Origin: Solirubrobacteraceae bacterium
GTDB lineage: Bacteria > Actinomycetota > Thermoleophilia > Solirubrobacterales > Solirubrobacteraceae
DNA: 51,342 bases
Assembly: GCA_035719985.1 (NCBI GenBank)
Contig: DASTPN010000010.1
Coordinates: forward strand, 1-51,342
Direction of reading: 5' to 3'
Every line of letters starts with the position of its first letter. The stretch's first letter is position 1. The translations under genes and the position numbers were made by a program. Positions 8,604 through 33,459 of this stretch are shown here, one piece after another. The notes under the pieces were generated by a model. That model saw only the letters and a list, made by a program, of their open reading frames with translations. It had not been told where the DNA came from and did no database searches.

Positions 8604-9559
8604 GCAGCCAACAAACAACCAGCACATCCGCAGCGGCGATAGGCACCACCACTGCAAGCGCCTCCAGTCCGGTTCACATCTGGTTGATGGCCGCTCGCCT
8701 GCGCACGTTGCCGGCCGCGGTGGCGCCGGTTCTGGTCGGCACTTCGCTCGCGCTCGGCAGCGGCAGCTTCCGGGCGCTGGCGTTTGTGGCGGCGCTGCTG
8801 GGGGCGATCTTCATCCAGGTCGGTACGAACCTCTCAAACGACTACTCCGACGCGCGGCGCGGTGCCGACAACGAGGACCGGCTCGGGCCGGTGCGAGTAA
8901 CGGCCGGAGGGCTCGTGCCGCCGGGCAAGGTGCTGCTTGCCACCTGGATCACGTTCGGACTGGCGGTCCTCTGCGGGGTCTACCTGGTCGCCATCGCCGG
9001 CTGGGCGCTGATCGCGGTCGGTGCCGCCTCGATTCTGGCCGGGGTGCTCTATACCGGCGGACCACGACCCTATGGCTATGAGGGGCTCGGCGAGCTGTTC
9101 GTGTTCCTGTTCTTTGGCATCGTCGCCGTCACCGGCTCTTATTTCGTACAGGTCAGCGAGCTGGAGTGGCCAGCTTTTGCCTGTGCTGTGCCGGTGGGGC
9201 TGCTGGCCAGCGCGATCCTGGTCGTCAACAATGTCCGTGACCTGGAGACAGATCGGCGCGCGGGCAAGCGCACACTGGCGGTGCGGCTCGGGCGCGAGCG
9301 CACCCGCGCGCTGTATACAGCGATGATCGCGCTGGCGTTCCTGCTGGCACCGCTGTCGTGGGCGCTCGGTTCGATGACGGCCTGGTTGCTGGCGCCGTGG
9401 CTTGCGATCCCACTGGCGCTTCCGCTCGTGCGAATCGTGCGTACACGGGTAGATGGACCGACACTAAACGGCGCACTGGCGAAGACGGGGATGCTTCAGC
9501 TGATCTTCTGCGTGCTGTTCTCCGCCGGCATTCTTGCCAGCGGCGGGATCGGGAGCTGA
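8600..9559 (+). CDS. menA: 1,4-dihydroxy-2-naphthoate polyprenyltransferase
   Basis: [39 protein letters not shown]...[10 protein letters not shown]; multiple TM segments. Confidence 0.95.
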
Positions 9560-9569
9560 GCACGCCACT

Positions 9570-10622
9570 GTGCATCTGAACGTGCGCCGGCACACGTTGC
9601 GCCTGCGAGCACCCCTGATCAGCGCCTATGGCGCGGTCGGCGAGCGGGTCGTGCTGTCGGTTTGGCTGCAAGATGAGGACGGAGCGGTCGGCTACGGAGA
9701 AGCGGCGCCGCTCGCTGCCTATGACGGCGTCAGCGTGCAGCGCGTCGAGCAGGCGCTGGAGCACTACCGGCCGGTGCTGGCCGCAAGCGCCGGGCTAAAC
9801 GGCGCCGAGATTGTGGACGCCTGCCGGCGCGCCGATGACCTGCCCGAGGCGTTCGCGGCGATCGACATGGCGTTGTGGGATCGCGCCGGTCGGCGCGCGG
9901 GCAAGCCGGTGGCAGCGCTGATCACCGACTCACCCGCCCCATCGGTAGCGGTGAATGCCACGATCTCCGCGCTTGATCGCGCCGGTGCGTCGGAGGGGGC
10001 CGCCGCTGCCGCGGCGGCGGGGTTTGCATGCTTGAAGTTGAAGGTCGGCAGTGGCGATGACGCCGGCCGCTTGGCAGCCGTGCGAGCAGCAGCCGGGGCC
10101 CAGATGGCGATTCGCCTGGACGCCAATGGGGCTTGGACGGTCGAGCAGGCCGTGCGCAACATCGAAGCGCTGGCGCCGGCAGGGCTCGAGCTGGTCGAGG
10201 AGCCCGTGCATGGGCTCTCAGCCGTGCGCGCGGTGCGCGAGCGCGTGGCGACGCGGGTTGCGATCGACGAGACTGCGGTCGAGCATGGTGCGCTCACCGC
10301 CGGGGTTGCCGATGCCGTCTGCTTGAAGATCTCGCGCTGCGGGGGAATTTCCGGATTGCTCGCGGCCGCCACGCTCGTCCGTGCCTCCGGCGCCGAGGCT
10401 TATGTGGCCTCGACGCTGGACGGGCCGCTTGGCATCGCGGCCGCGATGCACGCCGCTGCCGCGCTTGCCTCCCGCGGGGCGCTGCCGGCCTGTGGCTTGG
10501 CGACGCTTGGGATGTTCGACGAAGTCCCAGCCGATCTGCTCGCACCGCGGCAGGGACAGATTGCGTTGCCCAGCGGACCGGGGCTCGGCGTCGAGCCGCT
10601 GCCCAATACAGATGCGCTATGA
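9570..10622 (+). CDS. menC: o-succinylbenzoate synthase (enolase superfamily)
   Basis: GYGEAAPL, KLKVG, IRLDANGAW, VEEP, AIDE, LKI motifs; men context; start (GTG 9570) approximate. Confidence 0.82.
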   Translation: MHLNVRRHTLRLRAPLISAYGAVGERVVLSVWLQDEDGAVGYGEAAPLAAYDGVSVQRVEQALEHYRPVLAASAGLNGAEIVDACRRADDLPEAFAAIDMALWDRAGRRAGKPVAALITDSPAPSVAVNATISALDRAGASEGAAAAAAAGFACLKLKVGSGDDAGRLAAVRAAAGAQMAIRLDANGAWTVEQAVRNIEALAPAGLELVEEPVHGLSAVRAVRERVATRVAIDETAVEHGALTAGVADAVCLKISRCGGISGLLAAATLVRASGAEAYVASTLDGPLGIAAAMHAAAALASRGALPACGLATLGMFDEVPADLLAPRQGQIALPSGPGLGVEPLPNTDAL

Positions 10623-11396
10623 CACCTGCGCACCGTCGCTGAGGACGCTGCTTTGGCAAATCGCGGCCGCGACGGCAGCCGGGCTCTCCAGCGGCAGGCG
10701 GTGCCCGCCCCGGGCGAGCTTCAGTCTGGCGTCGGGCAGTAACTCAACCATTCGCCAGGCAATTGTCTGGAACTTGGCGTCGCGATCGCCGGCAATCACC
10801 ACCACGGGCATTAACAGCTCGCCCAGGCGAGGCCATAGCGAGGCCATCTCTCCCGTGCCCAGGCCGCGCAGAACAGCGGCCAGCTGGCACGGGTCGTTGC
10901 GAAGGTAGTCGGCCCGCGCCAGCGCCTCCACCGGCTCGGGATCGGCCGCGAACATCGGCTGCGCGCACCAGCGCTCGGCGAACTGCTCGATCGAGCCGGC
11001 TTCGATCTGCTTGGCAAGCTCATGATCGGTCTCGCTGCGCTGCGCCCGTTCGAGCGGATCCTCCAGCCCGGGGGCACTGGCGACCAGCACGAGCTTTGTT
11101 ACACGCTCGGGTGCGCCAAGCGCCACATGCAGCGCGAGCCTGCCTCCGAGCGAGTACCCGCACAGGGTAAAGCGCTCAGGCGCGCGTGCCAGGACCGATT
11201 CGACACAGCCGTCGAAGTCGATCGCGCCCACCGCGTCGCTGCCTGCGCCTTTGGCGCCAGCGCGCTCGCCCAGGGAACCGTGGCCGGGGAGGTCGAGCGC
11301 GAGCGAGCGATAGCGTTCGCCCGGAAGATGGGTCAACACGTCATCCCAGCAGCGGGCGGTGCCTGCAAAGCCATGCAACAAAACGACCCACTCCAC
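10617..11396 (-). CDS. menH: alpha/beta hydrolase, probable SHCHC synthase
   Basis: LLHGFAG, DLPGHG, GYSLGGRLAL nucleophile elbow, GDRDAKF, GH; adjacent to menD. Confidence 0.82.
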   Translation of the reverse strand: MEWVVLLHGFAGTARCWDDVLTHLPGERYRSLALDLPGHGSLGERAGAKGAGSDAVGAIDFDGCVESVLARAPERFTLCGYSLGGRLALHVALGAPERVTKLVLVASAPGLEDPLERAQRSETDHELAKQIEAGSIEQFAERWCAQPMFAADPEPVEALARADYLRNDPCQLAAVLRGLGTGEMASLWPRLGELLMPVVVIAGDRDAKFQTIAWRMVELLPDARLKLARGGHRLPLESPAAVAAAICQSSVLSDGAQVS

Positions 11397-11407
11397 AAGC
11401 GCATCCT

Positions 11408-13144
11408 ATGACCTCGGGCCCCGACCATCAGCCGCTGCTCGCCGCATTCGCCGATGAGCTCGCCCGCTGCGGCTTGCGCCACGCCTGCACCTCACCGGGA
11501 TCGCGCTGCGCGCCGCTCGTGCTGGCGCTAAGCGCCGAGCGGCAGTTGCGTTGTTATTCGCACATCGACGAGCGCAGCGCCGGCTTCTTCGCACTCGGAC
11601 TGGCAAAGGCGTCCTACCGGCCGGTCGCGCTGACGTGCACCTCGGGCACTGCCGTCGCCGAGCTGTTGCCCGCTGTGGTGGAGGCGCACGAGGCGCGTGT
11701 GCCTCTGATCGTGCTGAGCGCCGACCGGCCGCCGGAACTGCGTGACATCGGTGCCGGACAAACGATCGATCAGTTGAAGATCTTCGGCGGCTTTGCCAAG
11801 TGGTTCTTTGAGGTCGGCACGCACGCGAGCACGGCCGAGAGTGTGCGTTGGATGCGGATGCTGGCCTGCCGTGCCTACTGGACGGCGGTTGAGGGCAGGC
11901 CGGGGGTCGTGCACCTTAACTTCGCCTTGCGCGAACCGCTCGTAGTCAACATGGCGCCCGAGCCACCGTGCGCAGGCCGCCCCGACGGGCGGCCGCTCGT
12001 GACCCGGTCCGCAACCCGCGTTTTGGCGCCCACGGACGCCGAGTCACTGGCCCAGCCGGTGACAGCCTGCCGACGTGGACTGGTGGTGGCCGGCCGCCAC
12101 GAGCGCGACACTCCGCTTGGCCAGGCCGCTGCCACGTTCTGCGCGAGGGCCGGCTGGCCGCTGCTTGCCGATCCCCTCTCAGGCGCGCGACGTGGCGAGG
12201 CGGCCATTGCTCACTACGACGCCCTGCTGCGAGATGACTCATTTGCCTTGGCAGCCAGGCCCGATCTGATCTTGCGCGTAGGCGATCTGCCCACTTCCAA
12301 GCCGCTGCGGGCGTGGCTGGCCGGGATGCCCGAGGTGCCGCAGGCCGTGATCGACGCTGAGGGCTGTTGGCAGGATCCGGACATGACGCTCTGCCGTGTC
12401 TTCTCGTTGGAGCCGGCCGCCGCGATTGAGACGCTCGATGCTTTGCCGGCAGATCCCGACTGGCTTTCGCTATGGAGCCGCGCCGACAAACGGTCGGCTC
12501 GCGCGATCGGAGAGTCGCTGGCGCTCGCCAACGCCGGGCTGAGCGAGCCGGCCGTGGCGAGCGAGCTTGGCGTGCTACTGCCGGAGAACTCGACGCTGTT
12601 CGTCGCCTCCTCGATGCCCGTTCGCGACATCGAGACGTTCTGGCCGGCGCGAGCGGACCCGCCCCGAGTGCTCTGCAACCGCGGCGCCAACGGCATCGAC
12701 GGGACCGTCTCGAGCGCTTTTGGCGCGGCCGCCGCCAGCGTGGGGCCGGTGGTGCTCCTGATCGGCGACGTGGCCTTCGCACACGATCTCGGCGGGCTGC
12801 TTGCCGGCAGCCGGCTCTCTCTGAAGCTGACGATCGTGCTGATCAACAACGGGGGCGGCGGCATCTTCGATTTCCTGCCGGTCGCAAAGGCCCCCCTTGC
12901 GTTGCAAGCGGACCGCTACCGCGAGCACATCGCCACACCGACAGGGCTGGACTTCGCCAAGGTCGCCGATTGCTACGGCCTGAGCCACGAGCCGGTATCG
13001 GACATGGCCGGCTTTCGAGCCGCACTCGAGCGCGCACTGGAGGCGCCGCACTCGACACTAATCGAAGTCAAGAGCGAACGATCGGCAAACGTCGATCTGC
13101 ATCGCCGCACCTGGGACGCCGTGTCCAAGGCGCTCAGGAGCTGA
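11408..13144 (+). CDS. menD: SEPHCHC synthase (ThDP-dependent)
   Basis: SPGSR..PL, IDERSAGFFALG, CTSGTA, ADRPPEL, NRGANGIDG, GD.AF.HD, NNGGGGIF; start at ATG 11408 rather than the ORF-track 11186. Confidence 0.95.
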   Translation: MTSGPDHQPLLAAFADELARCGLRHACTSPGSRCAPLVLALSAERQLRCYSHIDERSAGFFALGLAKASYRPVALTCTSGTAVAELLPAVVEAHEARVPLIVLSADRPPELRDIGAGQTIDQLKIFGGFAKWFFEVGTHASTAESVRWMRMLACRAYWTAVEGRPGVVHLNFALREPLVVNMAPEPPCAGRPDGRPLVTRSATRVLAPTDAESLAQPVTACRRGLVVAGRHERDTPLGQAAATFCARAGWPLLADPLSGARRGEAAIAHYDALLRDDSFALAARPDLILRVGDLPTSKPLRAWLAGMPEVPQAVIDAEGCWQDPDMTLCRVFSLEPAAAIETLDALPADPDWLSLWSRADKRSARAIGESLALANAGLSEPAVASELGVLLPENSTLFVASSMPVRDIETFWPARADPPRVLCNRGANGIDGTVSSAFGAAAASVGPVVLLIGDVAFAHDLGGLLAGSRLSLKLTIVLINNGGGGIFDFLPVAKAPLALQADRYREHIATPTGLDFAKVADCYGLSHEPVSDMAGFRAALERALEAPHSTLIEVKSERSANVDLHRRTWDAVSKALRS

Positions 13145-14627
13145 GCAGCGGCAACAACGCAGCAAGCTTGATCTCGGTCTCCCCCAGCTCCGTGTGCGGA
13201 ACCGAGTCGCGCACGATCCCGTTGCCGGCATAGCAACGGGCCACGTTGCCTCGCAACAGTGCGCAACGCAACGCGACGCAGAACTCGCCGTCTCCGGCGG
13301 CGTCACTCCAACCGACCGGGCCCGTGTACCAGCCGCGATCGAGTCCCTCAAGCGCCGGGATCAGCTCCAACGCGGCGTCGGCCGGCTCACCGCCGACGGC
13401 CGGGGTCGGATGCATCATCCCCGCCAGTTCGATCGCCTCGATCGGCGCCGCCAACTGGGCGCGGATCGGTGTAGCCAAGTGTTGGATGTTGGCGATCCTC
13501 ACCAGCGTGGGCTCGGGGGATGCCGCCACCCAGATCGCGTGACGGTTCAACGTGCGCTCGATTCGGCGCACGACGATTGCGTGCTCCTCGCGGTAGCTTG
13601 GGTCGCGCAGCAAACGCTCGCCCAGGTGGGCATCGACTGCGGGGTCGGCGCTGCGCCGGGTTGATCCTGCCAGCGCTATCGTGGAGATGCGCTGGCCCTC
13701 GCGCCGCACGAGCAGCTCCGGGCTGGCGGCGATCAGAGTCGAGTCTCCCCTGCCGACGCAGAAGACAAAGCAGGAAGAGAAGGCATCGCGTAGCACGCCG
13801 AATAGGGCGCCGGGGTCATAGTCGCTGGGGGCGTGGACCTCGACGTCGCGGGCGATGACGATCTTCTGGATCTGTCCCTTGCGGATCCTCTCAGCGGCGC
13901 GGGCCACCGCGGCTTCATAGTGCTCGGGCGGCATTCCGCTTGAGACCTGATAGCGACCGGTCGGCGCCGGGTCAAGCAAGGGAAGTGGAGCGTTGGAGAG
14001 CTCATTGACGCGAGTGCACAGACGTCTGAGCAGGTCCTCTTCGGTGTCGTCAGGGGCGGCGAGCGTTGCAAGCGTCATACGGACCTGAGCATGTTCGCTG
14101 CCGCCTTCTCCGTTACCGCCGCCGCCTCTATTGCTGGTCCCGCTCCCATCGCGGGTAAGCGCGAGCTCGGGCACGAGCATCGATGCGGGTGCAAAACCAC
14201 GCCACAACGGCGAGGAGCCACCGTCTGGGGCAAACGCGAAACCACCGAGCAGAAGCGGGCCACCACCGTCGGGATCGCCGGGCGAATCCGCGACAGCGGC
14301 GGCGCTGAGCGTGCGCCAACGGTCTGCCACCCGCGCAAAGCGCGCCGGTCCGTGCTCCTCCAGGCGCAGCACCTCCCCAAGTGCTGCCAGGGCCGAACCG
14401 GCGCGATCGGGCTGCTCGAAAGCAAACCACGGCTCACCCGCCCGGCGCGAGGCACACACGACCGCCACCGGATCCACGGTGACCGGCAACGGGCACGCCA
14501 TCGTCGCGAGCGTTGCTCGCCCTGAGCGCCGCGCGCGCCGCAAAGCCAGCTCGATCCGCGCGCTCAAGCGCTCGCGATCTGACTCACTGAGAGCGAAGGG
14601 CGAGCGCTCGCCGGTCCGGACGGCCAC
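13134..14627 (-). CDS. menF: isochorismate synthase
   Basis: KIVIAR, ASPELLV, ALAGS, EH..VV, IQHLAT, HPTPAVGG, RGWYTGPVGW, ALRCA, YAG.GIV, ETEIK. Confidence 0.9.
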   Translation of the reverse strand: MAVRTGERSPFALSESDRERLSARIELALRRARRSGRATLATMACPLPVTVDPVAVVCASRRAGEPWFAFEQPDRAGSALAALGEVLRLEEHGPARFARVADRWRTLSAAAVADSPGDPDGGGPLLLGGFAFAPDGGSSPLWRGFAPASMLVPELALTRDGSGTSNRGGGGNGEGGSEHAQVRMTLATLAAPDDTEEDLLRRLCTRVNELSNAPLPLLDPAPTGRYQVSSGMPPEHYEAAVARAAERIRKGQIQKIVIARDVEVHAPSDYDPGALFGVLRDAFSSCFVFCVGRGDSTLIAASPELLVRREGQRISTIALAGSTRRSADPAVDAHLGERLLRDPSYREEHAIVVRRIERTLNRHAIWVAASPEPTLVRIANIQHLATPIRAQLAAPIEAIELAGMMHPTPAVGGEPADAALELIPALEGLDRGWYTGPVGWSDAAGDGEFCVALRCALLRGNVARCYAGNGIVRDSVPHTELGETEIKLAALLPLLSS

Positions 14628-14678
14628 GTCTCAAGCCTACTTCACCGTACGCTGTCCACCCGGCCTGCGTACGGCCGT

Positions 14679-15245
14679 CTAAGTCTCGCCTCGCCCCCTG
14701 GCGATCGCTATCTCCCCCGTGCGCATCATCTCGATCAGGCCGAACGGACGCACCATGCTCTCAAACGCCTCGACCTTGTCGGTCGTACCGGTCACCTCGA
14801 TCACCAAGGAGCGCTTAGTGACGTCCACGACCTTGCCTCGGAATATCTCGATGATCTGCATCAGCTCGCCACGCTGAGCGCCGTCGGCTGAAACCTTGAA
14901 CAGGGCCAGCTCGCGAGCGACCGTGTCGGTCGGCTCCAAGTCGCGGATCTTCAGCACGTTGACGAGCTTGTGCAGCTGCTTTGTCACCTGATCGATCGGG
15001 TGGATCGCGCCATCGACGGTGAGCGTCACACGCGAGATGTGATCGTCGTCGGTGGGGCCAACCGTGAGCGTGTCGATGTTAAAGCCGCGGCGCGCGAACA
15101 GGCCCGCGATCCTGGTGAGGACACCGGACTTGTTCTCGACGAGGATCGAGAGCACATGCTTGCGCCCCGAGCGCAGGTTGCCGGAGGCCTGCAGCGCCTC
15201 CAGGCTCAGCGGCTCCTTCGTTGCAGGCTCACCCACTGCGATCAC
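14679..15245 (-). CDS. ilvN: acetolactate synthase small subunit
   Basis: LSILVENKSGVLTRIAGLFARRGFNIDTL ACT domain; RELAL.KV; RTG. Confidence 0.96.
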   Translation of the reverse strand: MIAVGEPATKEPLSLEALQASGNLRSGRKHVLSILVENKSGVLTRIAGLFARRGFNIDTLTVGPTDDDHISRVTLTVDGAIHPIDQVTKQLHKLVNVLKIRDLEPTDTVARELALFKVSADGAQRGELMQIIEIFRGKVVDVTKRSLVIEVTGTTDKVEAFESMVRPFGLIEMMRTGEIAIARGRGET

Positions 15246-16936
15246 CCCACCATCTCGCGGGCTGCTTGCCCGGCAGGGATCATCGGATAGGTGTTCTCCT
15301 CGCGGGTCACCTTCACGTCGACCACAACCGGGCCGTCGGTAGCGATCGCGCGCTTCATGTCATCCACCAAGGTGGCCTTGTCTTCGAAGCGCATACCGGT
15401 GGCGCCATAGGCCTCGGCCAACTTGACGAAGTCCGGGTAGGGGCCCATGTCTACATGGCTGTAGCGCTTATCCCAGAACAGCTCCTGCCACTGGCGCACC
15501 ATGCCCAGATAGCCGTTATTCATGATGAACACCTTGATCGGGATGTTCTCCTGGGCGCAGGTGGCGAGCTCCTGTGCGTTCATCTGCACTGAGCCGTCGC
15601 CGGCTATGCAGCAGACGGTGCGATTGGTGCAACCGACGGCGGCGCCCATCGCTGAGGGCAAGCCGAAGCCCATCGTGCCGAGGCCGCCGGAGTTGATCCA
15701 GCGGCGCGGCTTGGGAAAGCCGTAGTACTGAGCGGTCCACATCTGGTGCTGGCCGACGTCGCTGGTGATGATCGCCTCGCCGCCGGTGGCCTCGTGCAGC
15801 GCCTGGATCATGTACTGCGGCTTGATCTCCGAGTCGGTCGAGTCCTCGTAGGCAAGCGGATACTGCTTGCGCCAACCTTCGATCTTCTCGCACCAGTCGC
15901 CGAGCCGGGCCGGATCGGCGCTGAGCGCGCGGTACTCGACCACGAGCTTTGCCAGCACGTGCTTGGCATCGCCCACGATAGGGATGTGCGCCGGCACGTT
16001 CTTGGATATCTCCGCCGGGTCGACGTCGATGTGGATGAACTTCGCTCGCGGCGCGAACTCCGAGAGCTTACCCGTGATGCGATCGTCAAAGCGCGCGCCG
16101 ATCGCGCAGATCAGGTCCGCCTCGTCCATCGCGTAGTTGGCGGCGCGCGTGCCGTGCATGCCGAGCATCCCAAGCCACTGCGGATGCGCTGCGCCATCGG
16201 CGCCGACGGCCGGGAACGCGCCTAGGCCCATCAGCGTGCAGGTGACCGGGAAGCGATCGCTGGTGGCGAACTCCACCAGCTCCTCGGCGGCGTCGGCCGC
16301 GACCACGCCGCCGCCGGCGTAGATAACCGGACGGCGTGCGGCGGCCAACGCCTTGGCGGCCTGGCGGATCTGCTTCTGGTTACCCTCGAGCGTCGGCTGG
16401 TAGCCGGGCAAGCGCACGTCGGCCACCGGCTCGTAGGGGATGTCCGCTCGCGAAAGATCCTGTGGGATGTCGACCAGTACTGGGCCGGGGCGCCCCGAGC
16501 GCGCGACGTAGAAAGCCTCGTGGATCGCGCGCGGGATTTCCAGCGGGTCCTGGATCATGAACGAGTGCTTGACGATCGGCATCGTGATGCCGATCGTGTC
16601 GGCCTCCTGGAAGCCGTCGGTGCCGAGCAGCTCGGTGCGCACCTGGCCGGTGATGAACACGACCGGGACGGAATCCATCATCGCGTCGCAGATAGGCGTG
16701 ATCAGGTTGGTGGCGCCGGGGCCGCTGGTGGCAAAGGCGACGCCGACGCGGCCGGTCGCCTTGGCGTAACCCTCGGCGGCGTGGCCGCCGCCGGCCTCGT
16801 GGCGAACGAGGATGTGGCGGATGCCGGCGTCGACGAAGGCATCGTAGGTGGGCAGGTTGGCGCCGCCGGGGAGGCCGAAGACGACATCGACACCCTCCGC
16901 CTTCAGGCATTCCATCAACGCATCCACAGCGCGCAT
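15242..16936 (-). CDS. ilvB: acetolactate synthase large subunit
   Basis: FGLPGGA, RHE, TSGPGATN, GMLGMHG, DVGQHQMW, GLGTMGFG, GDGS, NNGYLGMVRQWQ; AGGAGG RBS. Confidence 0.97.
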   Translation of the reverse strand: MRAVDALMECLKAEGVDVVFGLPGGANLPTYDAFVDAGIRHILVRHEAGGGHAAEGYAKATGRVGVAFATSGPGATNLITPICDAMMDSVPVVFITGQVRTELLGTDGFQEADTIGITMPIVKHSFMIQDPLEIPRAIHEAFYVARSGRPGPVLVDIPQDLSRADIPYEPVADVRLPGYQPTLEGNQKQIRQAAKALAAARRPVIYAGGGVVAADAAEELVEFATSDRFPVTCTLMGLGAFPAVGADGAAHPQWLGMLGMHGTRAANYAMDEADLICAIGARFDDRITGKLSEFAPRAKFIHIDVDPAEISKNVPAHIPIVGDAKHVLAKLVVEYRALSADPARLGDWCEKIEGWRKQYPLAYEDSTDSEIKPQYMIQALHEATGGEAIITSDVGQHQMWTAQYYGFPKPRRWINSGGLGTMGFGLPSAMGAAVGCTNRTVCCIAGDGSVQMNAQELATCAQENIPIKVFIMNNGYLGMVRQWQELFWDKRYSHVDMGPYPDFVKLAEAYGATGMRFEDKATLVDDMKRAIATDGPVVVDVKVTREENTYPMIPAGQAAREMVG

Positions 16937-17612: not shown

Positions 17613-17692
17613 AGCTGAGGACAGCCTATGTAAAGATCGAGCTTAGGACGGCCTAATAATCGCCGTCGTCGTTGGCAAGGCAGCCTCCCCGC

Positions 17693-19300
17693 TCAGGCGT
17701 AGTAGCGAGCTATGACCTGGAGCTGGCTGAAGACGTCGTGCGAGAGGAACAGGATCACAATCGCCGCCGCAGTCGCCGGCGCCCATCGCCGGCCGGCGCC
17801 ACGGACTGCGAGCGTCAGTATGGCTCCGAGCAACGGCAGCATCGGCAACAAGTAGCGAGGATCGCCATAGGCTTCCACATGGGAGATCACGTCAGAGTCA
17901 TACGAGGCGACCCCAACCATTGCAAACACTCCAACGGTCATGATGATGTACGTGAGAAGCTCCGGCAGACGATCACGCAAGGCGGAGCGCCGACCGAACA
18001 TCTCCCGAAGCGCAAGCAGCAAGATCAGAACCGTCGGCACCAGCGCAACGCGAACAACCCAACCGGGAAATTGCGTGTCTATCCAACCGTAGAGACCCAC
18101 GGATCGAGTGAACCACACGTCCCAGAAAGTGGACATACCCTGGAAGTAGTGCGTCATTCCCGGCAGGTACGGAAGATACAACTGCCATATGTAGCTGAAC
18201 TTGTTAAAGACAGAGCCCTCTACCGTGCCTGCTGCGCTTTCCGAGGCAATCCCGAGAACGGGTTGACTCGACGAGAGATGCAGGAGCACATCGAGCGCCG
18301 CCGGGAGAATCCCGATTCCTGCGGCGATGCCAAATGACGACCACGCGGCCGTACGTTTGAGTCGAACATCTCGTACGCACACAAAGATCAACCCGATAAA
18401 CACACCGGGCGCCAGGCCGGCGAAATTTAGCTTTGTGAGAAAGCCAACCACGATGAGAAGGCCCGTCACGACGGCAAGAGGACGACTGAGGCCACGGCGG
18501 AACGCGCGGGCCAGACAAAGAAACAGACCCGCAGAGACCGCGTAGAGCATGGTGTCGGGATTGAGAGTGCCCGACATGAAACCGAACAGTGGCTGAAGCG
18601 CAACGCACATTGCGCCCGCCGTCGCGGCCCACGGAACACCCGGCAAGAGCTCGCGTAGGAAGAAGAAGATCAGCAGCACCGTCAGGCCCGCCGTCAAGGC
18701 GGCTAGCAGCCTCATCAGCTGCAGCTGCCACAGCACGTTGCCTGAGCCGAGCGCATAGGGAATCGTCTGTATCGCATAGAACAGCGGTGGTTGAGACGCC
18801 GCAACTCCCGCGGCCCCCGACCCGACAGACGAAGCGTTGGCGTCAACGGCGCGCGTGAGCCCTTCTTGCTGAGCGGCAGACGATATTGCCGGCACTTGCG
18901 GTTTCAACCGTATGGCAGCCTGATTTAGTTCGCTCAATACAAGCGACTCCGCGGGAGACTCGGGTTCGGAGCCCGGTCGAGGCAGTTTGCCCGTTTCGGC
19001 GAGTAGCTGGACGTAAGCAAAATGGTCAGGCTCGTCGCGACCCTGAAACGGCGGCGTGATGATTGACCACGCAACCCCGTTGAGAATCGCGATCGATACG
19101 CATGTCCATGCGATTGCCGGGATCCTTGCGAAGATGCTGCGCAGATCGATCGAAGGCCATCGCCAGGCTCGCGCGACCCGGCCGCTAATCGACCGTCCTG
19201 GCATCGAGCGCCTCCCGCCTGCATCCAGGCTCCTGTTGAAGGAGCGTGACCCGACGGCGGCCTTGCCCGACTTAGCGCCCGGGCGACGTGTCTTGGTCAC
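17693..19300 (-). CDS. DUF2142 / GT-C-like polytopic membrane glycosyltransferase, copy 1
   Basis: WSIITPPFQGRDEPDHFAY acidic first loop, PPLFY, LNPDT, TKL, PRYLLP; more than 10 hydrophobic segments; GTG start overlaps the upstream TGA (GTGA). Confidence 0.75.
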   Translation of the reverse strand: MTKTRRPGAKSGKAAVGSRSFNRSLDAGGRRSMPGRSISGRVARAWRWPSIDLRSIFARIPAIAWTCVSIAILNGVAWSIITPPFQGRDEPDHFAYVQLLAETGKLPRPGSEPESPAESLVLSELNQAAIRLKPQVPAISSAAQQEGLTRAVDANASSVGSGAAGVAASQPPLFYAIQTIPYALGSGNVLWQLQLMRLLAALTAGLTVLLIFFFLRELLPGVPWAATAGAMCVALQPLFGFMSGTLNPDTMLYAVSAGLFLCLARAFRRGLSRPLAVVTGLLIVVGFLTKLNFAGLAPGVFIGLIFVCVRDVRLKRTAAWSSFGIAAGIGILPAALDVLLHLSSSQPVLGIASESAAGTVEGSVFNKFSYIWQLYLPYLPGMTHYFQGMSTFWDVWFTRSVGLYGWIDTQFPGWVVRVALVPTVLILLLALREMFGRRSALRDRLPELLTYIIMTVGVFAMVGVASYDSDVISHVEAYGDPRYLLPMLPLLGAILTLAVRGAGRRWAPATAAAIVILFLSHDVFSQLQVIARYYA

Positions 19301-19968
19301 TCGAATCCCCTCCAAACAGCTCGAAGCGACAAACCGCCCACGATGGCCATAAGTCCAAGGACGAGTAGCGAAACCCAAGTTCCGGCCAGCACGTGGCCGA
19401 CCCCGAGGTGACGAGCAACAGAAAGCCCTCGCGACCACCAGGAGCCGTCGCCGTTGGCCAGATATTCGACTGTCAGCCTGCCGCCCAATGCTTGGCCAGA
19501 GCGCGATACCGCCGCTTCACGCGTCGGGGTGTCAAAGCCTATGAGCGCTATCGACTCGCTGTTGGAAGTAACGTCAAAGCAGAGCTTTGCGGGGTACACC
19601 GTCCGATCGACCGGTCTTACTGGGATTGTCACCATGCCCCCGGTCCAATCCGGGGCTCGGCTGCCTTCGGTGATCAGGCGCGAGCGCGAATAGACCTTCA
19701 CATGCACTCGGAACCCAAACGTCGCGTCCAAACCGAGCCGGATCGCCGACGTTCCCGCGGGAAGTGCTTCATTGGCTTGGCATGCTGCGGCACCCTTGGT
19801 CGCCGTGGCGAGTTCCGCCGACTCGGGGGCATTGGCGCGGAGAACCCGAGGGGGCGCACGGCTGAGCGTCCAAGCGCCGACGGCCACCGCGAGTGCGACA
19901 CACGCGATCGTCGCTACCTTCAAACCCTTGACGCCTTCCATCTTTCCCCGAATCACATAAGATTCCAC
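19297..19968 (-). CDS. hypothetical membrane-anchored protein (N- and C-terminal TM, Cys pair), copy 1
   Basis: 223-aa ORF clearly paralogous to 31193..31873 (CQ..E.LPA..SAIR, W....VTIPV.P, KLC, VEYLA....SWWSR..SVARH.G.GH..AGTWV); start uncertain. Confidence 0.8.
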   Translation of the reverse strand: MESYVIRGKMEGVKGLKVATIACVALAVAVGAWTLSRAPPRVLRANAPESAELATATKGAAACQANEALPAGTSAIRLGLDATFGFRVHVKVYSRSRLITEGSRAPDWTGGMVTIPVRPVDRTVYPAKLCFDVTSNSESIALIGFDTPTREAAVSRSGQALGGRLTVEYLANGDGSWWSRGLSVARHLGVGHVLAGTWVSLLVLGLMAIVGGLSLRAVWRGFE

Positions 19969-20146
19969 AACACTGATTAGTTGGGGCAGTCTAGTCTTGC
20001 TATGCGCAAGTGACTCGGTAAAGAGCGTCTAGGCAGATACGCTTAGCCGGCACATCACGCCGCACACTCTTACAGCGCGCTATCCCGAACGGAAAACAAG
20101 TGGGAAACAGACGCCCACAAACGTCACCGGCTCAGTGCGGACGAGG

Positions 20147-20428
20147 CTATGTCCGTTGGGACGATTCCGGCACGAGCGTCCGATCGGGATACTCAAGCTC
20201 CTCACCGCAGCGCGTGCACAGCGCGTCGTAGGCCGTGGTGAGGCGCCCGCATTTCGGGCAACGTCGATGCGGCTCGTCTCGGTCGAAGCGGTAGGCGATC
20301 GCGGCCAGCAGGCCGAAGATCGGCACCGCTCCGGAGATCAGGAACCACAGCCAGAAGGAGCTCCCCTTGATGCGCCCGACAATGCCGCCGGCGAGAGCGA
20401 AGCAGAAGGCTATGACGACGTAGGCCAC
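20147..20428 (-). CDS. small membrane protein with C-terminal zinc ribbon
   Basis: two hydrophobic helices followed by CPKC-x10-CTRC. Confidence 0.75.
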   Translation of the reverse strand: MAYVVIAFCFALAGGIVGRIKGSSFWLWFLISGAVPIFGLLAAIAYRFDRDEPHRRCPKCGRLTTAYDALCTRCGEELEYPDRTLVPESSQRT

Positions 20429-29982: not shown

Positions 29983-31182
29983 GTGGACTGGATGAGTGTC
30001 CACGCCACGCCGATCTCTGCGCCGCCGGCCCAATTCGAGCAACCCACCGTGGCGGAGCCCGTAGTGTCAGTGGTGATTCCGTGCCTGAACGAGGCCGGCA
30101 GCGTTACGCAATGTGTCGAGACCGCGCTGGCCACCTTGACCGAAGCCGACATCCCAGGCGAGGTGATCGTCGTCGACAACGGCTCGACTGACGGCAGTTA
30201 CGAACTCGCCGAGGCGGCCGGAGCCCTCGTCGTACACGAGCCTCGGCGTGGCTACGGCAGCGCATACCTGGCCGGATTCGCCTCGGCATCGGGCACTTAC
30301 GTCGTGATGGCCGACGCCGATATGACCTACGACCTGCGCGAGATACCCCGCTTTCTCGCTGAGCTGCGCGACGGCGCAGACATGGTAATCGGAGATCGGA
30401 TGTCGAAAATACATTTAGGAGCGATGCCGTGGCACCACCGCTACATCGGTAACCCGCTGCTCTCCGGGCTGCTCAACGCCTTCTTCCATGCCGGGGTTCG
30501 CGACGCCCACTGCGGCATGCGCGCCTTCCGCCGCGACCGGCTCGACCAGTTGCAGCTGCGCGCTACCGGCATGGAGTTCGCTTCGGAGATGGTCGTGCGC
30601 GCGACACGCGAGCGGTTGCGGATTCGCCAGGTGGACATCGAGTACCTGCCTCGAGACGGCGAGTCGAAGCTCTCGAGCTTTCGTGATGGCTGGCGCCATC
30701 TGCGTTTCATGCTGCTGCATTCCCCCAGTCATCTCTTCATCCTGCCGGGCGCTGCCGTGGCGACGCTGGGCGCTCTCATCTCAGCGATGGTTCTCGGCCA
30801 GGTGGACATCTTCGGGCGCCAATGGGATCTACATGCGCTGATCGGCGGCGCGCTGCTTCTGATCGTCGGAGCTCAGATTACGAGTCTCGGCCTGTGCGCA
30901 CACGCATACGCGACCTACTTCATGGATTACAGCGAGCGATGGTTCGATCGGTTGCGCGCACGCCTGCGACTCGAGCATGGCCTGATGCTGGGCAGTGCGA
31001 TCACTTGTGTAGGGGTTGCTATCAGCGCCTACATCGCCACGCGCTGGGTGGCGCGCGGTCTCGGCAGCCTCTCCCAGGAGCGTACGGCGATACTTGCCGC
31101 CACCTTGATAGTGCTCGGCTTGCAGGTGATCTTCTCTTCCTTCCTGCTCAGCATCCTCGGTCTACGAAGGGACCGCGCTTGA
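29983..31182 (+). CDS. GT2 glycosyltransferase (DPM1-like, probable polyprenyl-phosphate sugar synthase) with C-terminal TM domain
   Basis: SVVIPCLNE, VVDNGSTD, GYGSA, DAD, DAHCGMRAF, GMEFASEM, GESKL..FRDGWRHL; four C-terminal TM segments. Confidence 0.9.
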   Translation: MDWMSVHATPISAPPAQFEQPTVAEPVVSVVIPCLNEAGSVTQCVETALATLTEADIPGEVIVVDNGSTDGSYELAEAAGALVVHEPRRGYGSAYLAGFASASGTYVVMADADMTYDLREIPRFLAELRDGADMVIGDRMSKIHLGAMPWHHRYIGNPLLSGLLNAFFHAGVRDAHCGMRAFRRDRLDQLQLRATGMEFASEMVVRATRERLRIRQVDIEYLPRDGESKLSSFRDGWRHLRFMLLHSPSHLFILPGAAVATLGALISAMVLGQVDIFGRQWDLHALIGGALLLIVGAQITSLGLCAHAYATYFMDYSERWFDRLRARLRLEHGLMLGSAITCVGVAISAYIATRWVARGLGSLSQERTAILAATLIVLGLQVIFSSFLLSILGLRRDRA

Positions 31183-31192
31183 CAGGCACAAC

Positions 31193-31873
31193 GTGTCGCC
31201 GGCGCCGGCACGAACGCCGACTGCGCGCCGACCGATGATTGCCGCCCGTACAGCGTTGGCGCTCAGCGTTGCGACGATGCTCGTCCTGATCGCTGTCACG
31301 CTGACCAGATCGCCCGTGCGCGTCGTCCGCGTCGGGGAGCCGAGGCCATTGAAAACTCTCGGCTCCACGACTGGCCCAATCAGCGTATGCCAGGAAGGTG
31401 AAACCCTGCCGGCGAAGGTTTCTGCGATCAGGGCGGGCCTGGAAGGATCACTCGGCCCGCCGGTCTTGTTGCGAGCCTTCGCTGGTGGACGCATTGTCGC
31501 CGAAGGAAGCAGGAGCGGCAATTGGACCGACGACACGGTCACGATACCCGTAAAGCCTCTGAGCGCAGGCGCTCACTCCGTCAAGCTCTGCCTGTACGTC
31601 CGACACAACGACGAGTTACTTCAGCTCTACGGCGCTGCCAGCGGGTCACATCTTGCTGCCTACTCAGCTGGCGGACAGAGACTTCCAGGCCGCTTCAGCG
31701 TTGAATACCTCGCCTCTGACGGCAACTCGTGGTGGTCACGGGTAGTTTCGGTGGCACGACACGTCGGGATCGGTCATGCATTTGCCGGGACCTGGGTCGC
31801 GCTCTTGCTTGCCATGCTGGTGGCGGCGCTCGCCAGCTTGCTCGTGGGTCTCGCCTGGAAGGAACTACCGTGA
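31193..31873 (+). CDS. hypothetical membrane-anchored protein (N- and C-terminal TM, Cys pair), copy 2
   Basis: paralog of 19297..19968; starts 10 bp after the GT2 stop. Confidence 0.8.
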   Translation: MSPAPARTPTARRPMIAARTALALSVATMLVLIAVTLTRSPVRVVRVGEPRPLKTLGSTTGPISVCQEGETLPAKVSAIRAGLEGSLGPPVLLRAFAGGRIVAEGSRSGNWTDDTVTIPVKPLSAGAHSVKLCLYVRHNDELLQLYGAASGSHLAAYSAGGQRLPGRFSVEYLASDGNSWWSRVVSVARHVGIGHAFAGTWVALLLAMLVAALASLLVGLAWKELP

Positions 31874-33459
31874 GCTCCAGACGAGACCTGCGCGACGATC
31901 GCTCGTCGGTCGGATCGCGCGCCTTTCGAAGACAGAGGCGACAGGCACGCGCGCGTCGGCAACGGCGTGCGATGACGCGCATGCAAGCACGGATGCGCGC
32001 GGCGCCCAGGACGAACATACGTGCACTGTTGCGAGGCATACCGGCGGCAGCCTGGATTTGCGCTCTGGTGGCGCTACTCAACGGCGTAGCGTGGTCGATC
32101 ATCACACCGCCGTTTCAGGGTCGCGACGAGCCATCTCACTTCGCCTACGTGCAACAGCTCGCCGAGACGGGTACGTTGCCGCACGAAGTCGCCGAAGGCG
32201 GTGGCCCCTCCCCGCGGGAGAACAAGGCTATTGAAGGGCTTCACCAATATGAAATCATGCTGGCACCAGAGGTACCGGCGATATCTTCGGTCAGCGAGCA
32301 ACGCGCCCTGAAGAACGACCTGAGCGAAGAACTCTCGCCAGTGGGGTCCGGTGAAGCCGGCGTCGCCACATCAGAGCCGCCCCTCTACTACGCGCTCGAG
32401 ATTGTCCCTTACGCGCTGGGCGCCGGCAATACCCTCACACAACTTCAGCTGATGCGGCTCGCGGGGGCGGTACTGGCCGCACTGACCACACTCCTGGCGT
32501 TCTTCTTCCTGCGCGAGCTGCTTCCCGGCTCACCCTGGATGACAACGATCGCGACCGGCTGCATCGCCGTGCAGCCACTGTTCGGGTTCATGTCTGGAAC
32601 GCTCAATCCAGACACGATGCTCTATACCGTCTCGGCCGCCGTTCTGCTCTGTCTGGCGCGAGCCTTTCGCCGTGGGCTCAGCATGCGTCTGTCAATCGCA
32701 CTTGGCGCCGCGATTGCAATCGGTCTTGTGACCAAGCTCAACTTCATCGGTCTCTGCGCGGGCATTTTCCTCGGCCTGAGCTTGATCGGCATACGCGAAG
32801 TCCGATCTCACGGGCGCGAAGCGCTCAAGCCGATCGGTGCGGCAACGGGCATCGGCCTCTCTCCCGTCCTGCTGTACGCCGTGTTCAGTGGAGGCAGCCT
32901 CTTCTCCTCGATCGGCGACGTCATAACTTTCAACAATGGAGGGTTCTTCAAAGAGGTCAGCTACGCGTGGCAGCTGTACCTTCCGCGCCTGCCTGGAATG
33001 TCACACTACTTCCCCGGTATCGAAACCTACCGCGAGATTTGGTTCGATCGTTTCGTTGGCCTGTACGGCTGGTTGGACACACAATTCCCCACCTGGGTCG
33101 ACAATCTGGCGCTGATCCCGGCGGGGTTGATAGCGGTGCTCTGCCTCAGAACATTGGTCGTCGGTCGCGAGAGGCTGCGAAGCCGCCTTCCTGAGATTGC
33201 AACCTACGCGCTGCTCCTCATCGGGCTGCTCGTGATGGTCGGCCATTCGGCTTTCTCGAGTTATCTATCCAGCGGAGCGGCAGCATTCGGTGATCCACGC
33301 TACCTGCTGCCCGTCCTGCCTCTGCTCGCGGCCATTCTGGTACTGGCCATACGCGGTGCAGGCAGATGGGCACCTCCCGTTGCGGCCGTCATCTTGGTCA
33401 CGTTCTTGGCACACGACCTTTTCAGTCAGATGCAAACGATTGCCCGCTATTACGGGTAG
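31870..33459 (+). CDS. DUF2142 / GT-C-like polytopic membrane glycosyltransferase, copy 2
   Basis: WSIITPPFQGRDEPSHFAY, PPLYY, LNPDT, TKL, GDPRYLLP, IARYY end; GTG start overlaps the upstream TGA (GTGA). Confidence 0.75.
   Translation: MSSRRDLRDDRSSVGSRAFRRQRRQARARRQRRAMTRMQARMRAAPRTNIRALLRGIPAAAWICALVALLNGVAWSIITPPFQGRDEPSHFAYVQQLAETGTLPHEVAEGGGPSPRENKAIEGLHQYEIMLAPEVPAISSVSEQRALKNDLSEELSPVGSGEAGVATSEPPLYYALEIVPYALGAGNTLTQLQLMRLAGAVLAALTTLLAFFFLRELLPGSPWMTTIATGCIAVQPLFGFMSGTLNPDTMLYTVSAAVLLCLARAFRRGLSMRLSIALGAAIAIGLVTKLNFIGLCAGIFLGLSLIGIREVRSHGREALKPIGAATGIGLSPVLLYAVFSGGSLFSSIGDVITFNNGGFFKEVSYAWQLYLPRLPGMSHYFPGIETYREIWFDRFVGLYGWLDTQFPTWVDNLALIPAGLIAVLCLRTLVVGRERLRSRLPEIATYALLLIGLLVMVGHSAFSSYLSSGAAAFGDPRYLLPVLPLLAAILVLAIRGAGRWAPPVAAVILVTFLAHDLFSQMQTIARYYG

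Follow-up and report, generated by a model that had tools for sequence, protein, structure and literature searches.

The DNA analysed here (the window) is a stretch of 51,342 nucleotides from contig DASTPN010000010.1 of a Solirubrobacteraceae bacterium (assembly GCA_035719985.1). Our subject is cassette 1, a pair of overlapping minus-strand genes specifying a small, previously unnamed membrane protein and a large DUF2142 membrane protein. We lean towards the view that these are the two pieces of a GT-C glycosyltransferase which decorates a surface glycan with side-chain sugars and whose outer face is covered by the small piece; that the two proteins are physical partners is, in our opinion, very probable. 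The genes are paired and conserved and bear signals of coupling, while the folds of their products and the 1:1 complex between them are predicted. The features of cassette 1 are as follows (TM, transmembrane helix; AF2, AlphaFold2):

17693..19300, minus strand: DUF2142/GT-C-fold membrane protein, 535 aa (PF09913 and PMT_2 matches; GT-C fold of a fused homolog)
19297..19941, minus strand: small partner gene, 214 aa from ATG 19941; TM1, beta-sandwich, amphipathic helix, TM2
19297..19313, minus strand: junction with GGAGG (19313-19309), 8-nt spacer and GTGA stop/start overlap
19447..19851, minus strand: predicted extracytoplasmic jelly-roll beta-sandwich, residues 31-165 (AF2 model and structural matches)
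19780..19782, minus strand: Cys54 (CQ), invariant in 141/141 homologs
19579..19581, minus strand: Cys121 (KLC), invariant in 141/141 homologs
19306..19440, minus strand: amphipathic helix of residues 168-181 (WWSR...VARH), then TM2 at 188-212; together the chief predicted contact with the GT-C protein
19031..19036, minus strand: D89-E90, a putative catalytic pair of acidic residues in the loop that follows the first TM (D in 98%, E in 97% of 148 GT-C rows)

A first-pass annotation of this DNA had described a two-gene unit with a GTGA overlap, and both open reading frames (ORFs) are indeed so arranged: the TGA of the small gene shares bases with an in-frame GTG of the large gene at 19300, with GGAGG 8 nt upstream. 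An alternative in-frame start for the large gene, ATG 19204, has a GGAGG of its own; GTG 19300 is favoured because the N-terminal extension which begins at the overlap (VGSRxF) is kept in the close relatives L272, L273 and L277, as it is in the paralogous cassette 2 described below. The small ORF can likewise be extended upstream to GTG 19968 (19297-19968, minus strand). Its likely start is ATG 19941 and not this GTG; the 214 aa which result are also the length recorded in the database and shared by most homologs. The dN/dS ratio of the small gene against seven close relatives was approximately 0.24-0.45, near saturation. A scan for promoters and terminators gave signals at chance level.

Pairing of the two genes across homologs

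In 100 regions fetched around part of the small-profile matches, every one of 107 full-length small modules adjoins or is fused to a GT-C gene: 43 lie directly before it, 29 directly after it, and 35 form its N-terminal part (frameshifts affect one of the "split" and one of the reverse cases). The 4-nt overlap recurs in 36 of the 43 small-first pairs of this set and in 38 of the 49 split homologs of a later one, and an 8-nt overlap is shown by at least 22 of the 29 reverse-order pairs. Words resembling Shine-Dalgarno (SD) sequences precede the overlap at 32 of 50 junctions compared with 4.9% of control windows.

The converse also holds. Adding 40 extra regions, we find a module for 141 of 146 full-length GT-C ORFs in 140 regions, and for 30 of 35 where the GT-C alone chose the region, the module profile having been iterated on these same regions. 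Of the five GT-Cs lacking a module, one is cut by a contig end, two show a diverged but visibly similar N-terminal TM-loop-TM arrangement, and two are distant. With the large protein as query and the module profile fixed beforehand, 74 of 76 further loci carry the module (49 split and 25 fused); one of the two exceptions lies at a contig end and the other, L322, is a true orphan. The suggestion that the small protein is a dedicated partner of the enzyme was thus well founded, its pairing being near-obligate from either side (107/107, 141/146 and 74/76). The additional suggestion that it might be the acceptor has fared badly, since in many relatives the small protein and the enzyme are one polypeptide, of which it forms the N-terminal part.

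On a FastTree phylogeny of 148 GT-C rows the reverse gene order forms a single clade of 50 (support 0.966), and the split or fused state changes at least 11 times, the five GT-Cs without a module being excluded from this count. The in-frame fusions carry linkers of 4-83 aa. That the pairing has outlasted no fewer than 11 fusion or fission events and an inversion of gene order argues strongly, on comparative grounds, for a bacterial GT-C enzyme with an auxiliary subunit.

The small-protein profile matched 88 of 301 genomes sampled from the order, and the GT-C profile, at E up to 1e-10, 153 of them, many weakly; the GT-C tally, like a separate small-protein tally which gave the copies per genome, counts genomes G169 and G375, upon which no other claim depends. 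At E up to 0.001 the small-protein family comprises 1779 representative proteins (50%-identity clusters), its named homologs belonging to Solirubrobacteraceae/Solirubrobacterales, and 42 of the 43 long proteins matched by its profile contain PF09913. All 20 strong matches in a 251-genome sample of the class, and all six in a 301-genome sample of the phylum, fall within the order; outside it these samples gave no strong matches, the remainder being nearly all partial with E values of 1e-4 to 1e-3.

Up to five copies of the cassette occur per genome, some of them in tandem. Arrays of two or three cassettes, with split beside fused forms, are found at L031, L034, L047, L048, L085 and L104. Frameshifted homologs were seen in L110, L121 and as a second copy in L033; the last (L033:16689-18479) is also partly deleted and lies 10 kb from an intact cassette amid repeated genes. 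Genome G357 has five near-identical copies of one cassette on short contigs (C2, C3, C4, C16 and C20), which probably represent assembly redundancy or a mobile element. At L137 (minus strand, 753 codons) the small module is in frame with a downstream region which, judged by eye, resembles a glycosyltransferase; this joined ORF may be genuine or may stem from a read-through error.

Predicted folds and complex

The AF2 model of the small protein (pLDDT 89, pTM 0.79) consists of a helix (2-27), a beta-sandwich (31-165) and two further helices (168-181 and 188-212). The two TMs and the conserved cysteines, Cys54 and Cys121, had been recognized in the first reading; the motif spacing given there had not been counted correctly, SWWSR and VARH being separated by three residues rather than two. 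The cysteines are likely joined in a disulfide. R/H178, G135, G187 and W189 rank next to them in conservation.

In this model the sandwich is a jelly-roll, the beta-sandwich fold expected of a carbohydrate-binding module (CBM) and one which shows no function by itself. Its best structural match is the lectin-like domain of Cwp84 (Z 11.1, root-mean-square deviation [rmsd] 3.1, 128 residues aligned). Behind it, at Z 8-9.7, come the N-domains of esterases together with jelly-rolls of phage baseplates and capsids; PHR domains and then a large number of CBMs (Z 6-7) follow. In sequence searches no Pfam family was common to more than one of 69 homologs, no NCBIfam match was found for the small protein, and neither the small nor the fused profile had a meaningful sequence match in PDB. 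Its nearest Atlas clusters are unnamed Actinomycetota proteins, and a literature search, the reach of which excluded subscription journals and supplements, found no paper on the family. Mean identity is 0.23 for the module and 0.31 for the enzyme, so that the former diverges the faster.

The large protein possesses about 9-11 TMs and matches PF09913 [DUF2142] over profile positions 3-395 of 395 with 99.3 bits (cut-off 30.1), and PMT_2 with 47.4 bits (cut-off 26.1). D89 and E90 are acidic residues of the kind expected in GT-C enzymes in the external loop following the first core TM. The GT-C fold itself is assigned from the model of a natural fusion, P0059, predicted as one unit with pLDDT 92.7 and pTM 0.93; the large protein of the window was modelled within the complex alone (pLDDT 84-86). 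Based upon re-alignment of Foldseek's top 1000, residues ~212-696 of P0059 match the GT-C enzymes ALG12 [Z 20.0, rmsd 3.8, 331 aligned], Pmt4 [Z 19.2], ArnT [Z 18.9] and AftB [Z 18.2], and also EmbB [Z 13.1, aligned from residue 255]. The earlier description of the large protein as GT-C-like is borne out by these matches, the best of which lie at Z 18-20, and they provide structural support, in the form of a predicted model, for these DUF2142 proteins as GT-C enzymes. Neither of the two outcomes which the first-pass annotation had named as counting against it, a large protein without the GT-C fold or small homologs usually alone or in a characterised family, was found.

Complex prediction for the two proteins of the window gave a score of 0.89, the best of three controls reaching 0.30; our own alignments served as input. 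Of 157 solved complexes 116 attain the mark applied, as against 2 of 215 mismatched pairs. Agreement in contacts between runs was at least 87%, and partner pLDDT at least 78. Since the halves of split genes tend to pass such a test, the score supports rather than demonstrates binding. The most confident contacts are those of TM2, which packs on the first and last GT-C helices, and loops 68-78, 96-103 and 125-130 of the sandwich are predicted to touch outer loops of the GT-C protein (first external loop, ~125-148; 384-416).

Genomic setting and proposed mechanism

Cassette 1 has a paralog in the window, together with which stands a GT2 gene:

29983..31182, plus strand: GT2 with four C-terminal TMs, putative polyprenyl-phosphate-sugar synthase (PF00535); candidate in-trans donor supply for cassette 1
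31193..31873, plus strand: paralogous small partner (cassette 2), by sequence match to the cassette 1 small protein
31870..33459, plus strand: paralogous DUF2142 GT-C (cassette 2), GTGA overlap with 31193..31873
17657..20150: cassette 1 insertion, approximate span between Zn-ribbon gene and MbfA-C-like gene (break in DNA similarity)

The gene-for-gene paralogy and inverted orientation that had been reported were confirmed: the cassettes lie on opposite strands 11.2 kb apart, their small proteins sharing 43% identity over 183 aa (E 4e-47) and their large proteins 55% over 494 aa. They are the sole copies found in the source genome (91% complete). As had also been noted, cassette 1 has no GT2 gene on either side, its flanks being a VIT/MbfA-C-like gene and a Zn-ribbon gene. 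A suspected excess of A/T-ending codons is real, GC content at third codon positions (GC3) being 0.68 and 0.70 in its two genes against a genome median of 0.82; of the 1838 predicted genes that are 150 aa or longer, just 1.7% and 3.0% have lower values.

Comparison with congeners returned 30 loci for 40 matches, one of them the window itself. DNA similarity ends near 17656 and restarts near 20151-20163, and in 29 of 29 congeneric loci the Zn-ribbon and MbfA-C-like genes are directly adjacent without a cassette. Cassette 2 with its GT2 (GT2-small-GT-C, 29983-33459) is inserted between cysK and cysE on the opposite strand; cysE comes directly downstream of cysK in 26 of the 29 congeneric loci, none of the 29 showing the GT2. 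No convincing terminal repeats or target-site duplications were found at either cassette, nor any match to the large protein in plasmid or phage collections. The first reading had supposed a pair kept after local duplication. Since cassette 1 shares more identity with a copy from another genome (large 62%, small 54%) than with cassette 2 (57% and 41%), and the grouping of the two cassettes as sisters lacks support on the tree, they look, on sequence grounds, like separate insertions of older paralogs and not a fresh local duplication.

The neighbouring genes deserve mention in their own right. The stand-alone gene at 17070-17612 matches the C-terminal membrane half of MbfA alone (profile 163-318 of 318) and is kept at the same site in 29 of 29 congeners. 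Between gatB and this gene lies 20147-20428, specifying a 93-aa membrane protein with a C-terminal zinc ribbon, present in 37 of 41 genomes of the genus.

Genes surrounding the homologous cassettes were called with a codon model and clustered, and 64 representatives were scanned, covering 136 loci in stretches of 10-20 kb, some cut by contig ends. Other GT2 or GT4 genes occur in 102 loci, Wzm and/or Wzt in 54, a GT2-WsaF-like family in 52 and a homolog of the GT2 at 29983 in 59. A WpsA-like GT2 was found in 20 and DUF2304 in 16; both donor types occur together in six loci, and one or other type of candidate donor synthase in 74. Directly upstream of the cassette, the 29983-type GT2 is found in 21 of 44 small-first, 18 of 47 fused and 1 of 50 reverse cases. 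The best NCBIfam matches of GT2 29983-31182, all below cut-off, are the lipid-phosphate-sugar synthases AglJ, Dol-P-hexose transferase, PpgS and ArnC. It is one of two candidate polyprenyl-phosphate-sugar synthases of the source genome, neither of which lies beside cassette 1. The other, 63% identical to it, belongs to the genome's main glycan locus (contig C103), along with sugar-nucleotide genes, a GT4, two GT-C-like genes, a WsaF-like glycosyltransferase, Wzm and Wzt.

After the GT2 in this Wzm/Wzt locus are two convergent genes for unannotated polytopic proteins of ~750 aa with long C-terminal soluble parts [G000:C103:11931-14315(+) and 14257-16581(-), equivalent to L231:6932-9316 and 9258-11582]. 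One has a weak PMT_2 match, and they probably represent another GT-C family with a fused C-terminal domain. Often beside the cassettes is a further family (c22; 9 loci, and a homolog on G000:C206), exemplified by L152:4224-6632, whose product of 800 aa is a membrane protein with ~11 TMs and a C-terminal soluble portion; no Pfam or NCBIfam match was found for it.

Based upon these observations we might suggest the following scheme. A single GT-C glycosyltransferase would be made up of the two proteins, of which the large one is the predicted catalytic membrane core and the small one would dock through its two membrane helices so as to hold its lectin-like beta-sandwich over the outer face of the core. 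A GT2 presumably makes a polyprenyl-phosphate-sugar in the cytoplasm, and this lipid-sugar would then be flipped; the use of such a donor by the GT-C is suggested by neighbouring genes alone. For cassette 1 the donor would be supplied in trans by 29983-31182 or by the C103 GT2. Outside the cytoplasm the complex may then attach the sugar, as a side chain, to a polysaccharide which Wzm/Wzt has exported; C103 holds a locus of this kind. The sandwich may stabilise the outer loops and help to engage the acceptor glycan. Both cassettes, as add-ons outside the main glycan locus, would act as modifiers of the surface glycan.

Several points weigh against this scheme. Wzm/Wzt is missing from 82 of the 136 loci, and a donor synthase from 62, within the stretches fetched; none of the 64 neighbour representatives scanned is a GtrA flippase, the genome itself not having been searched for one. 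The window's own clade lies mostly amid housekeeping genes, as does cassette 1, and the GT2 of C103 could be used by the two other GT-C-like genes there. No surface aromatic of the sandwich is well conserved (the W99 column is aromatic in 56% of 141), and the jelly-roll match is not specific to sugars, viral capsid, baseplate and PHR domains (Z 7-9.7) exceeding the classical CBMs. The GT-C protein aligns to full GT-C cores without the small piece, and D89-E90 is not among the listed interface residues of the predicted complex. Among GT-Cs not at a contig end, three lack a module in their vicinity (L193 and L194, distant; L322, close), and the counts are not independent, as the locus sets may share genomes and the genomes are kin.

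One alternative retains the same two-piece enzyme with the small protein as a purely structural or folding subunit, similar to Pbn1/PIG-X, its sandwich binding no sugar; we consider this doubtful, though it is the rival to be taken most seriously. The best conserved positions (C54, C121, G135, R/H178, G187 and W189) are structural, and the predicted contacts of highest confidence are those of TM2 with TM1 and the last TM of the GT-C protein. In the EmbB study the N-terminal CBM was not located on the acceptor path (PMC7341804), and in the Gpi14-Pbn1 study the donor does not touch Pbn1 (PMC12653191). Contacts of the sandwich loops with outer loops of the GT-C protein are nonetheless predicted, and the faster divergence of the module is what a part conferring specificity might show.

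It is improbable that the enzyme is instead an oligosaccharyltransferase/ligase or a protein O-glycosyltransferase, which would load a surface protein with a single sugar or with the glycan that the ABC exporter delivers. Pmt4, AglB and STT3 are among the top fold matches, the PMT_2 match is above cut-off, and WsaF, a glycosyltransferase of S-layer glycan synthesis, has relatives in the 52 loci mentioned. The Z-scores, however, are tied with or close to those of the glycan-modifying ALG12, ArnT and AftB, and the fused model stops after its last TM without the soluble C-terminal domain that AglB and PglB have. Furthermore, the tightest neighbour is a putative monosaccharide-lipid synthase, and up to five copies per genome, some in tandem, fit diversification of side chains better.

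Quite improbable, too, is a polymerase with its co-polymerase, in which the GT-C protein would join lipid-linked repeat units and the small protein set chain length. Topology and pairing are as in lactococcal WpsH/WpsI (PMC9574508, PMC12599335), and WpsA/WpsB-like genes (GT2 and DUF2304) occur in 14 of 50 reverse-order loci. A Wzx-like flippase, as a Wzx-dependent repeat-unit pathway would lead one to expect, is found in six of 136 loci against the 54 with Wzm/Wzt, and in none at the window. Wzz has a long helical hairpin; the model here is a compact beta-sandwich without one, 1:1 fusion is common, and there is no Wzz Pfam match in 69 members. That the small protein is an acceptor substrate, or the split an artefact of assembly or frameshift, is largely refuted, a few frameshifted homologs (L110, L121 and the second copy of L033) being outweighed by the common break point with its start/stop overlap (36-37 of 43 and 38 of 49 split copies), the SD-like words at 32 of 50 junctions versus 4.9% of control windows, the reversed-order clade and the many in-frame fusions with linkers of 4-83 aa.

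Comparison with known systems

The first-pass annotation could match this pair to no described system, a statement which was too strong: EmbB (PMC7341804), WpsH/WpsI (PMC9574508, PMC12599335) and Gpi14-Pbn1 (PMC12653191) are comparable. Multi-component glycosylation of rhamnan has been reported (PMC9574508, PMC10821137, PMC9746298, PMC11754754), and SccN/SccM and SccP/SccQ act on ABC-exported polyrhamnose (PMC11754754). The three- and four-component systems (CsdA/CflA/CsdB, GacI/J/K/L, SccN/M, SccP/Q and ORF12) resemble ours, in which the synthase is a candidate, in combining a GT-C with a GT2 lipid-sugar synthase, or with GT2 plus DUF2304, in ABC-exporter loci (PMC9574508, PMC11754754, PMC11127046). 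Their GT-C, as described, is a single chain, whereas here an extra two-TM module is almost never missing. In Citrobacter ORF12 the CBM of the GT-C binds the acceptor and is C-terminal, Ig-like and dispensable (PMC11127046).

In Lactococcus lactis a two-TM protein with a large outer loop stands beside a DUF2142 GT-C (WpsH/WpsI; PMC9574508, PMC12599335), the two having been proposed as polymerase and Wzz-like co-polymerase in Wzx loci. The likeness of these proteins, and of WpsJ, to our cassette is one of topology and pairing; here we have a predicted beta-sandwich, frequent fusion and a Wzm/Wzt context. Gpi14-Pbn1 is a solved heterodimer of a GT-C and an ectodomain protein (PMC12653191). As predicted for our pair, Gpi14/PIG-M and Pbn1/PIG-X join a GT-C and an auxiliary subunit 1:1, with contacts through a TM helix and a beta-sheet ectodomain. 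Pbn1/PIG-X differs in having a single C-terminal TM and a larger, two-lobed domain, in being eukaryotic and in serving a glycolipid acceptor (PMC12653191); our small protein has two TMs. By features, the Atlas clusters nearest to the fused form are Bacillota DUF2142 proteins of ~690 aa (score 0.97, 686 aa, PF09913 in 100%). A 672-aa Bacillota cluster aligns to small-protein residues 18-214 at a TM-score of 0.44, under the 0.5 bar; both resemblances are mentioned as leads only.

A further parallel is with the mycobacterial arabinosyltransferases EmbA/B/C. In EmbB two N-terminal TM helices anchor a beta-sandwich CBM ahead of the GT-C core (PMC7341804, PMC7305291). The predicted model of the fused form has the same order, TM, beta-sandwich, TM, before its core, which begins at about residue 215 of P0059, where EmbB aligns from 255, and Emb proteins head the Foldseek list for this model. 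They are absent among the best 50 structural matches listed for the small-protein model, and no sequence similarity of Emb to the fused or small profiles was found. Unlike Emb, of about 1100 aa, the present family has no C-terminal CBM, the fused form (~700-750 aa) ending after the last helix, and its module is usually a separate gene, in either order.

One could go further and propose an order-wide, mobile two-piece GT-C in which a free-standing TM-jelly-roll-TM subunit, the equivalent of the Emb N-terminal region, selects the acceptor glycan and is exchangeable between paralogous enzymes, which we think rather unlikely. On that reading, cassettes inserted away from the main glycan locus would change the surface type of soil Solirubrobacterales cells, and the natural split would allow a direct test of the role of the Emb-type N-terminal CBM. 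In any event the split form permits clean tests of what N-terminal sandwich domains contribute to EmbB and other GT-C enzymes. Both the chemistry and the overall design are already known; what is new is the family of auxiliary modules of DUF2142 GT-Cs, which had no name and now gains a predicted fold, a partner and a likely role.

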